Source: Escherichia coli (lineage in GTDB: Bacteria; Pseudomonadota; Gammaproteobacteria; Enterobacterales; Enterobacteriaceae). From it: a DNA stretch of 374 nucleotides. The translations under genes were made by a program, and so were the position numbers. The stretch's first letter is position 1. Each line of letters opens with the position of its first letter. Positions 1-374 of the stretch are shown here, piece after piece. A model generated the notes under the pieces. The model saw only the letters and a program-made list of their open reading frames with translations. It ran no database searches and was not told where the DNA came from. Location: the NCBI RefSeq assembly GCF_003334815.1, contig NZ_QOWO01000133.1; one strand, 5' to 3'.

Positions 1-348
1 GATTTTCTGTATGCCGAGGCGTATGTGTACGCGCTGGCGCAAAAAATGATGCCGGAATATCAGGGAGGCTTCTGGCACTTCATCCGCCTGCCGGACGGTG
101 GCGGTTACATGATGCCGGATGGCGACCGTTTCCACATGGTGAACGGTGCAAACTGGTTTGACCGTACCGTGAGTGCTGATGCCGCAGGCATCATTCTGAC
201 TTCCCTTGTGATTAACCGCCAGTTGTGGCTGTACCACGACAGCGGGGATGCAGGACTGACCCAGCTTTACCGGATGCGCGATGCGCAGTTGTGGCGTCAC
301 ATCGAATTTCACCCCGAATGCAACGCGATTTACGCGGCACTGGACTGA
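1..348 (+). CDS. ArdB/KlcA-family antirestriction protein, 5'-partial (N-terminus lies upstream of the window)
   Basis: Frame +1 has no stop from nt 1 to TGA at 346-348; the ORF track's 25..348 sits in this frame and the 8 codons before it (DFLYAEAY) are also open. Translation carries motifs I recall from this family: Y-x-GG-x-W (58-75), DGGGYMMPD (94-120, cf. KlcA 'DGGFYMAPD'), VNG (139-147), SADAAGI (172-192, cf. KlcA 'SADAAGI'), and C-terminal Y-R-x-RD...HPEC-x-AIY-x-A-x-D ending at the stop (cf. KlcA '...HPEAAAIYRAID', YfjX-like '...HPE..AI..ID'). The match is from memory, not a search. The GTG at 25 is a track artifact, not the start, because family homology continues upstream of it and homologs have ~35-45 more N-terminal residues. 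Confidence 0.8.
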   Translation, partial: DFLYAEAYVYALAQKMMPEYQGGFWHFIRLPDGGGYMMPDGDRFHMVNGANWFDRTVSADAAGIILTSLVINRQLWLYHDSGDAGLTQLYRMRDAQLWRHIEFHPECNAIYAALD

Positions 349-359
349 TTAACGGACGG

Positions 360-374
360 GGCGGCAATGCCGCC
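360..374 (+). other. GC-rich stem-loop 12 nt after the stop (possible terminator stem or intercistronic structure), truncated by window edge
   Basis: Seen directly: ggcggc (360-365), loop aat (366-368), gccgcc (369-374) gives a perfect 6-bp all-G/C stem. G359 and G358 could extend it if nt 375-376 are CC. No downstream T-tract is visible because the window ends, so the function is unassigned. Confidence 0.3.

Follow-up and report, generated by a model that had tools for sequence, protein, structure and literature searches.

The ArdB/KlcA proteins relieve type I restriction while affecting modification little, and their fold is not that of a DNA mimic (PMC2836571). KlcA has shown antirestriction in vivo against type I enzymes of families IA to ID, its anti-modification being slight, and antirestriction in vivo has also been reported for the chromosomal ArdB paralogues (PMC2836571). 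Two plasmid-borne genes of the family are of direct concern here. Experimental papers refer to yfeB of plasmid R64 as "ardB (R64)" (PMC10149784), and yfgB of plasmid F has been described as 93% identical to ArdB(R64) (bioRxiv 10.64898/2026.01.09.698686). In vivo, ArdB(R64) inhibits EcoKI, EcoAI and EcoR124I (types IA, IB and IC) together with two type I systems of Bacillus licheniformis, and leaves BREX and the type III enzyme EcoPI uninhibited (PMC10149784). In vitro, its inhibition of EcoR124I and EcoAI is partial (PMC10149784), and cleavage by purified BlihIA is effectively blocked (PMC12429846). Deletion of Asp141 in ArdB(R64) abolishes both antirestriction and non-specific DNA binding (PMC12429846).

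The contribution of these genes to conjugation has been followed in several plasmids. Carrying an ardB::Cm mutation, the I-complex plasmid pMS7163B conjugated at lower frequency when the donor was hsd-deleted and the recipient EcoKI-positive (PMC10286972). Deletion of ardB or klcA on RIP113 and pB10 did not detectably change conjugation against the restriction-modification systems that were tested (PMC11602122). In F, the single-strand promoter ssp2 drives yfgB and also blocks synthesis of the complementary strand, a roadblock that is resolved by UvrD; deletion of ssp2 reduced F transfer 5-fold into EcoKI-positive cells and at least 21-fold into wild E. coli strains (bioRxiv 10.64898/2026.01.09.698686).

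Here we analysed a stretch of 374 nucleotides of E. coli DNA (the window). Judged by its sequence, the gene that it carries is the antirestriction gene of ArdB type known from F-like and I-complex conjugative plasmids; its names are yfgB in F and yfeB or ardB in R64. We hold with high confidence the reading as a whole, namely that this ArdB-type gene would lie in a plasmid leading region, would be expressed zygotically from single-stranded DNA and would counteract type I restriction. None of it is new: the gene has been published already, as have the single-strand promoter from which it is expressed and the antirestriction activity.

The gene in the window and its family

Reading frame +1 stays open from the window's first base and encodes 115 amino acids; the translation starts with DFLYAEAY and ends with HPECNAIYAALD. 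The original prediction had placed a coding region of 115 amino acids at 1-348, and both the coordinates and the length are exact. The first 26 codons of the gene are outside the window, and the ORF runs off the 5' edge. Plasmid records with the identical sequence place its start 78 bases upstream and give it a product of 141 amino acids, so that the window holds the 3' three-quarters of the gene; a GTG at base 25 is merely the earliest possible start inside the window, and no true start is found there. In plasmid pC15-1a (locus L001) the full gene of 426 bp occupies positions 9923-10348, and the window corresponds to 10001-10374. Four further ORFs in the window (23-51 amino acids, three of them antisense to the conserved gene) were without support and were taken as chance. 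The features are collected in Table 1.

Table 1. Features of the 374-nucleotide window, with positions counted from its first base
Feature	Position	Strand	Basis
CDS, residues 27-141 (C-terminal 115 aa) of the 141-aa ArdB-type antirestriction protein WP_001198928.1	1..345	+	Translation, identity to pC15-1a
Pfam PF03230 "Antirestrict" match	55..345	+	Translation residues 19-115, model positions 2-92 of 92
GAC codon, C-terminal Asp141	343..345	+	Window sequence
TGA stop codon of the ArdB-type gene	346..348	+	Window sequence
Intergenic G+C hairpin GGGGCGGC-AAT-GCCGCCCC, cut by the window end (2 bases beyond)	358..374	+	L001 10357-10375, sequence

The sequence-only prediction had assigned the product to the ArdB/KlcA family and had proposed an HMM search as the check. 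That search gave a strong match to PF03230, with E = 9.7e-27 for the 115-residue fragment (over model positions 2-92 of 92) and E = 1.9e-26 for the full 141-residue protein (residues 45-141), and the assignment is borne out by this match together with the alignment to two family structures. In a phmmer search of the PDB, KlcA (2KMG) was matched with E = 1.8e-18 (residues 5-141 against 6-142; 37% identity by BLASTP) and ArdB (2WJ9) with E = 3e-7 (residues 11-141 against 51-181; 28% identity by BLASTP). PHROG 10132, "anti-restriction protein", was also matched (E = 9e-20), and the NCBIfam scan returned no model for either the full protein or the fragment. The full protein is small and acidic (141 amino acids, 16.3 kDa, pI 5.0, 17 Asp/Glu versus 10 Lys/Arg), and homology predicts for it the KlcA/ArdB fold, described as "novel", which is not a DNA mimic.

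We then compared the window gene with its R64 and F counterparts. YfeB of the IncI1 plasmid R64 (NC_005014, 54478-54903), that is ArdB(R64), also has 141 amino acids and is identical to the window protein, without gaps, at 133 of the 141 residues; 358 of the 374 window bases are identical. Going from the window protein to R64 YfeB, the substitutions are S18F, N26Q, A31V, Y34S, Q40K, Q47E, M72I and A88C, six of which are encoded in the window. YfgB of F (NC_002483, 56755-57180) is closer, with 138 of 141 residues identical, again without gaps, and 363 of 374 bases identical; its three substitutions are M72L, A76E (F has VNGEN, not VNGAN) and A110V. Relative to the window, 8 codons differ synonymously and 3 non-synonymously in F, and 7 and 6, respectively, in R64, which indicates that the coding frame is conserved across both plasmids. 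Asp141 is kept in the window protein, whose last codon is GAC, and is shared by R64.

The other described members are more distant. KlcA of the IncP-1 plasmids (pBP136, 2KMG) has the same length and belongs to the same Pfam family, but is only 37% identical and is encoded in the kilC operon of IncP plasmids, not in an F- or I-type leading region. Its aligned sequence reads VNGNG and HPEAAAIY, where the window protein has HMVNGANWF and EFHPECNAIY; both of these differences had been anticipated from the sequence alone. Two chromosomal proteins with longer N-termini belong to the same family: YfjX (lfgA, in CP4-57 of K-12), which is 32% identical and has HPES, and ArdB of CFT073 (2WJ9), which is 28% identical and has HPEC like the window protein. 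A C-terminus of the form ...HPE(C/S)xAI...ID is common to all three. KlcAHS of the blaKPC-2 plasmids (pHS10842), an ArdB/KlcA-family protein of clinical enterobacterial plasmids, is likewise encoded by a 426-bp gene. It was rejected as the window gene, with which it was compared by its published cloning primers only: the KlcAHS gene ends are ATGATGCAAACAGAACTTAA... and ...CCATCTTGGCCGCAATAGAC, whereas those of the window gene are ATGCAATATGCGAAACC... and ...GCGGCACTGGAC.

The suggestion that the protein may be a distinct subfamily member stands in part. Identities of only 37%, 32% and 28% to KlcA, YfjX and ArdB of CFT073 speak for it, but the clade is not new. By its alignments, the window protein belongs to the clade of F yfgB and R64 yfeB, that is ArdB(R64), which has already been studied experimentally (PMC10149784, PMC12429846, PMC10286972, bioRxiv 10.64898/2026.01.09.698686).

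Distribution on plasmids and the leading region

All 374 bases of the window are identical to pC15-1a. The same 100% identity at the DNA level is seen in many plasmids, from E. coli, Shigella, Klebsiella and also E. albertii, and in all of the best 40 matches listed; every listed matching record is annotated "antirestriction protein". Among complete E. coli genomes, we found 4901 matching places in 3508 of 5426 genomes, 4838 of them (98.7%) on plasmids. In PLSDB, at least 5000 plasmid records matched at 90% protein identity or more, and about 81% of those records were typed as conjugative. The remaining 63 near-identical places in E. coli are chromosomal; they probably represent integration of F-like plasmids (Hfr-type), the simplest explanation, or joins made during assembly.

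The original prediction had proposed a probable mobile-element context, naming leading regions of conjugative plasmids, ICEs and enterobacterial islands, and had suggested inspecting the flanks. Inspection of identical records found mobile-element DNA, with a methylase, ssb, psiB/psiA, ardA, hok and relaxase/T4SS genes nearby, and the leading-region site was seen in all four plasmids compared. The neighbours of ardB are the same in pC15-1a (IncF), pM217_I1 (IncI1), F and R64: upstream are a DNA methylase gene, a small ORF, a DUF1380 gene and a gene for a hypothetical protein of 257-258 amino acids, and downstream are a second DUF1380 gene, a small ORF, ssb, a DUF905 gene, a parB-like gene, psiB, psiA and hok/flm. 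IncI plasmids add ardA downstream, as in R64, where the hypothetical gene also precedes ardB and the DUF1380 gene, ssb, psiB, psiA and ardA follow it. The oriT and relaxase region lies at the far end, with relaxase/T4SS genes nearby. The window therefore probably lies in an IncF/IncI leading region, as judged from these identical records, its own flanks being outside the window.

In F, R64 and pC15-1a, ardB lies 9-12 kb from oriT (about 9 kb from the oriT region in the case of F). Its orientation is that of ssb and psiB. All of the leading-region genes are read in the direction of oriT, from which it follows that their template is the transferred strand. This layout has been described for leading-region anti-defence genes (PMC11541004).

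A neighbourhood of radC-like and cbtA/cbeA genes, which had also been suggested, was absent from all four plasmid loci and belongs to the YfjX-type paralogues, which sit in prophage-like islands. In the CP4-57 locus of K-12 (L005 5920-7783), RefSeq lists yfjX under the name lfgA ("putative antirestriction protein") and yfjY under the name lfgB ("CP4-57 prophage protease"). There, lfgA is followed by the gene for a JAB/RadC-like protease, then by ypjJ and the yfjZ/ypjF toxin-antitoxin pair. With 32% protein identity and different neighbours, the chromosomal YfjX context was rejected for the window gene.

Two DUF1380 paralogues bracket the ardB unit in pC15-1a (L001 10395-10817 and 8244-8678).

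Non-coding elements on either side of ardB

A G+C-rich non-coding spacer of about 400 nt lies 5' of ardB, outside the window (L001 9532-9922; L003, the F locus, 11343-11755; L004 24062-24478). The spacer is 98% identical among F, R64 and two other plasmids, more than the ardB coding sequence itself (96-97%). Folded as the single-stranded DNA of the transferred strand, it forms a long imperfect hairpin (-98.8 kcal/mol, z = -4.8), which R64 shares, and the non-template arm holds TTGCAT and TAAGAT/TACGAT hexamers. A sigma-70 promoter scan around ardB found no sites, in keeping with a gene driven by a single-strand hairpin promoter in place of a conventional one; the terminator scan called the preceding gene's terminator, at L001 9513-9531. 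The spacer corresponds to the element published as Frpo3 (bioRxiv 10.1101/2025.04.03.647016), or ssp2, and F yfgB occupies the same leading-region position, 3' of this single-strand promoter.

We also considered whether the spacer is a copy of Frpo1 or Frpo2, and discarded the idea, as the repeat comparison showed only the spacer's own inverted repeat. Separately, the F locus contains three adjoining direct-repeat blocks (D2-D4; L003 13016-13622 and 18404-19012), 77-95% identical and 5.39 kb apart, which lie 5' of both ssb and the gene at L003 19033. In location and spacing they agree with Frpo2 and Frpo1 as published. An Rfam scan of ardB and about 1 kb on each side gave one sub-threshold chance match outside the window (che1, 23.9 bits against a gathering threshold of 54.1).

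On the other side of the gene, a perfect 8-bp hairpin begins 9 nt 3' of the stop codon, just 5' of the Shine-Dalgarno sequence (AAGGAG) of the DUF1380 gene. pC15-1a, F and R64 do not differ in this region, whose RNA fold has a free energy of -21.6 kcal/mol (z = -3.5). The terminator scan left this hairpin uncalled, and because it has no trailing T-run it is not a canonical intrinsic terminator. It could keep the mRNA stable, link the translation of the two genes, or fold within the single strand that is transferred.

How the protein may counter restriction

The window allele would be expected to relieve type I restriction with little effect on modification, as has been reported for the 94%-identical ArdB(R64) and for other members (PMC10149784, PMC2836571, PMC10286972). 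In the sequence of events that we propose, the transferred strand would be the template of ardB, which would lie in the leading region, and the recipient would transcribe the gene straight from the incoming single strand, from ssp2/Frpo3 immediately upstream (outside the window). The plasmid would thereby become modified, and would be safe afterwards. At the molecular level, the protein would interfere directly with HsdR-driven translocation or cleavage on the DNA, in a manner that would need the C-terminal Asp141 and would involve no DNA mimicry. We infer this direct interference at the HsdR translocation or cleavage step to be the most likely mechanism, and our preference for it is a tentative one, falling a little short of an even balance. 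The authors of the ArdB work called the mechanism "a mystery" and favoured a block of HsdR translocation on DNA (PMC10149784).

The main rival to direct HsdR interference is an indirect route, in which ArdB would put HsdR out of action by recruiting or triggering a pathway of the host, a "third player" or a process resembling restriction alleviation. We consider it unlikely, although it would account for the finding that KlcA and three ArdB proteins, active in vivo, neither inhibited nor bound EcoKI when purified (PMC2836571), and for the incomplete inhibition by ArdB(R64) in vitro, for which the authors invoked a missing component (PMC10149784). Against it, the antirestriction activity of the homologue KlcA136 is independent of ClpXP (PMC2836571), ArdB(R64) also acts on Bacillus enzymes expressed in E. 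coli (PMC10149784), and the protection from purified BlihIA suggests a direct mechanism (PMC12429846). A leading-region gene of pMS7163B, "910", shows a donor-specific, EcoKI-dependent conjugation defect like that of ardB (PMC10286972). Should 910 prove to be the neighbouring DUF1380 gene, it would be a candidate for the third player invoked for ArdB; an alternative explanation of the 910 defect is a polar effect of the Cm cassette.

By analogy within the family, ArdB of the F/R64 clade might also be a general inhibitor of translocating helicase-nucleases, which we regard as improbable. A single gene of the leading region would in that case act against two defences that are unrelated. The idea has already been raised for the family (PMC10810201); should it hold, that would count as confirmation and could not be called a discovery from the window.

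In our opinion very improbable is the reading, again drawn by analogy, that the main target would be Cas3, the nuclease of type I CRISPR-Cas, as for AcrIC11, and not type I restriction. HsdR and Cas3 are both translocating helicase-nucleases, which counts in its favour. Moreover, AcrIC11 of Xanthomonas albilineans, a KlcA homologue, blocks Cas3-dependent DNA degradation and not Cascade binding (PMC10810201). The direct evidence on the F/R64 clade, however, concerns type I restriction-modification, our literature search found no CRISPR-Cas test of the clade, and the lack of effect of ArdB(R64) on BREX and EcoPI (PMC10149784) also argues against Cas3 as the target.

Finally, it is scarcely credible that the window is a chromosomal island paralogue (YfjX/YafX/YeeS type) beside radC-like and cbtA/cbeA genes and not plasmid DNA, since, although such paralogues exist, as in CP4-57 of K-12 with its JAB/RadC-like gene and yfjZ/ypjF, and the 63 chromosomal places among the 4901 could be counted for an island origin, YfjX is so much less similar to the window protein than the plasmid genes, which are 100% identical to the window in DNA and make up nearly all of the matching places.

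In annotation work the fragment can be relied on to mark the leading region of F-like and I-complex conjugative plasmids, and its clade is among the commonest genes of enterobacterial conjugative plasmids. The medical relevance of the ArdB-type gene is that it helps antibiotic-resistance plasmids past type I restriction in new hosts.
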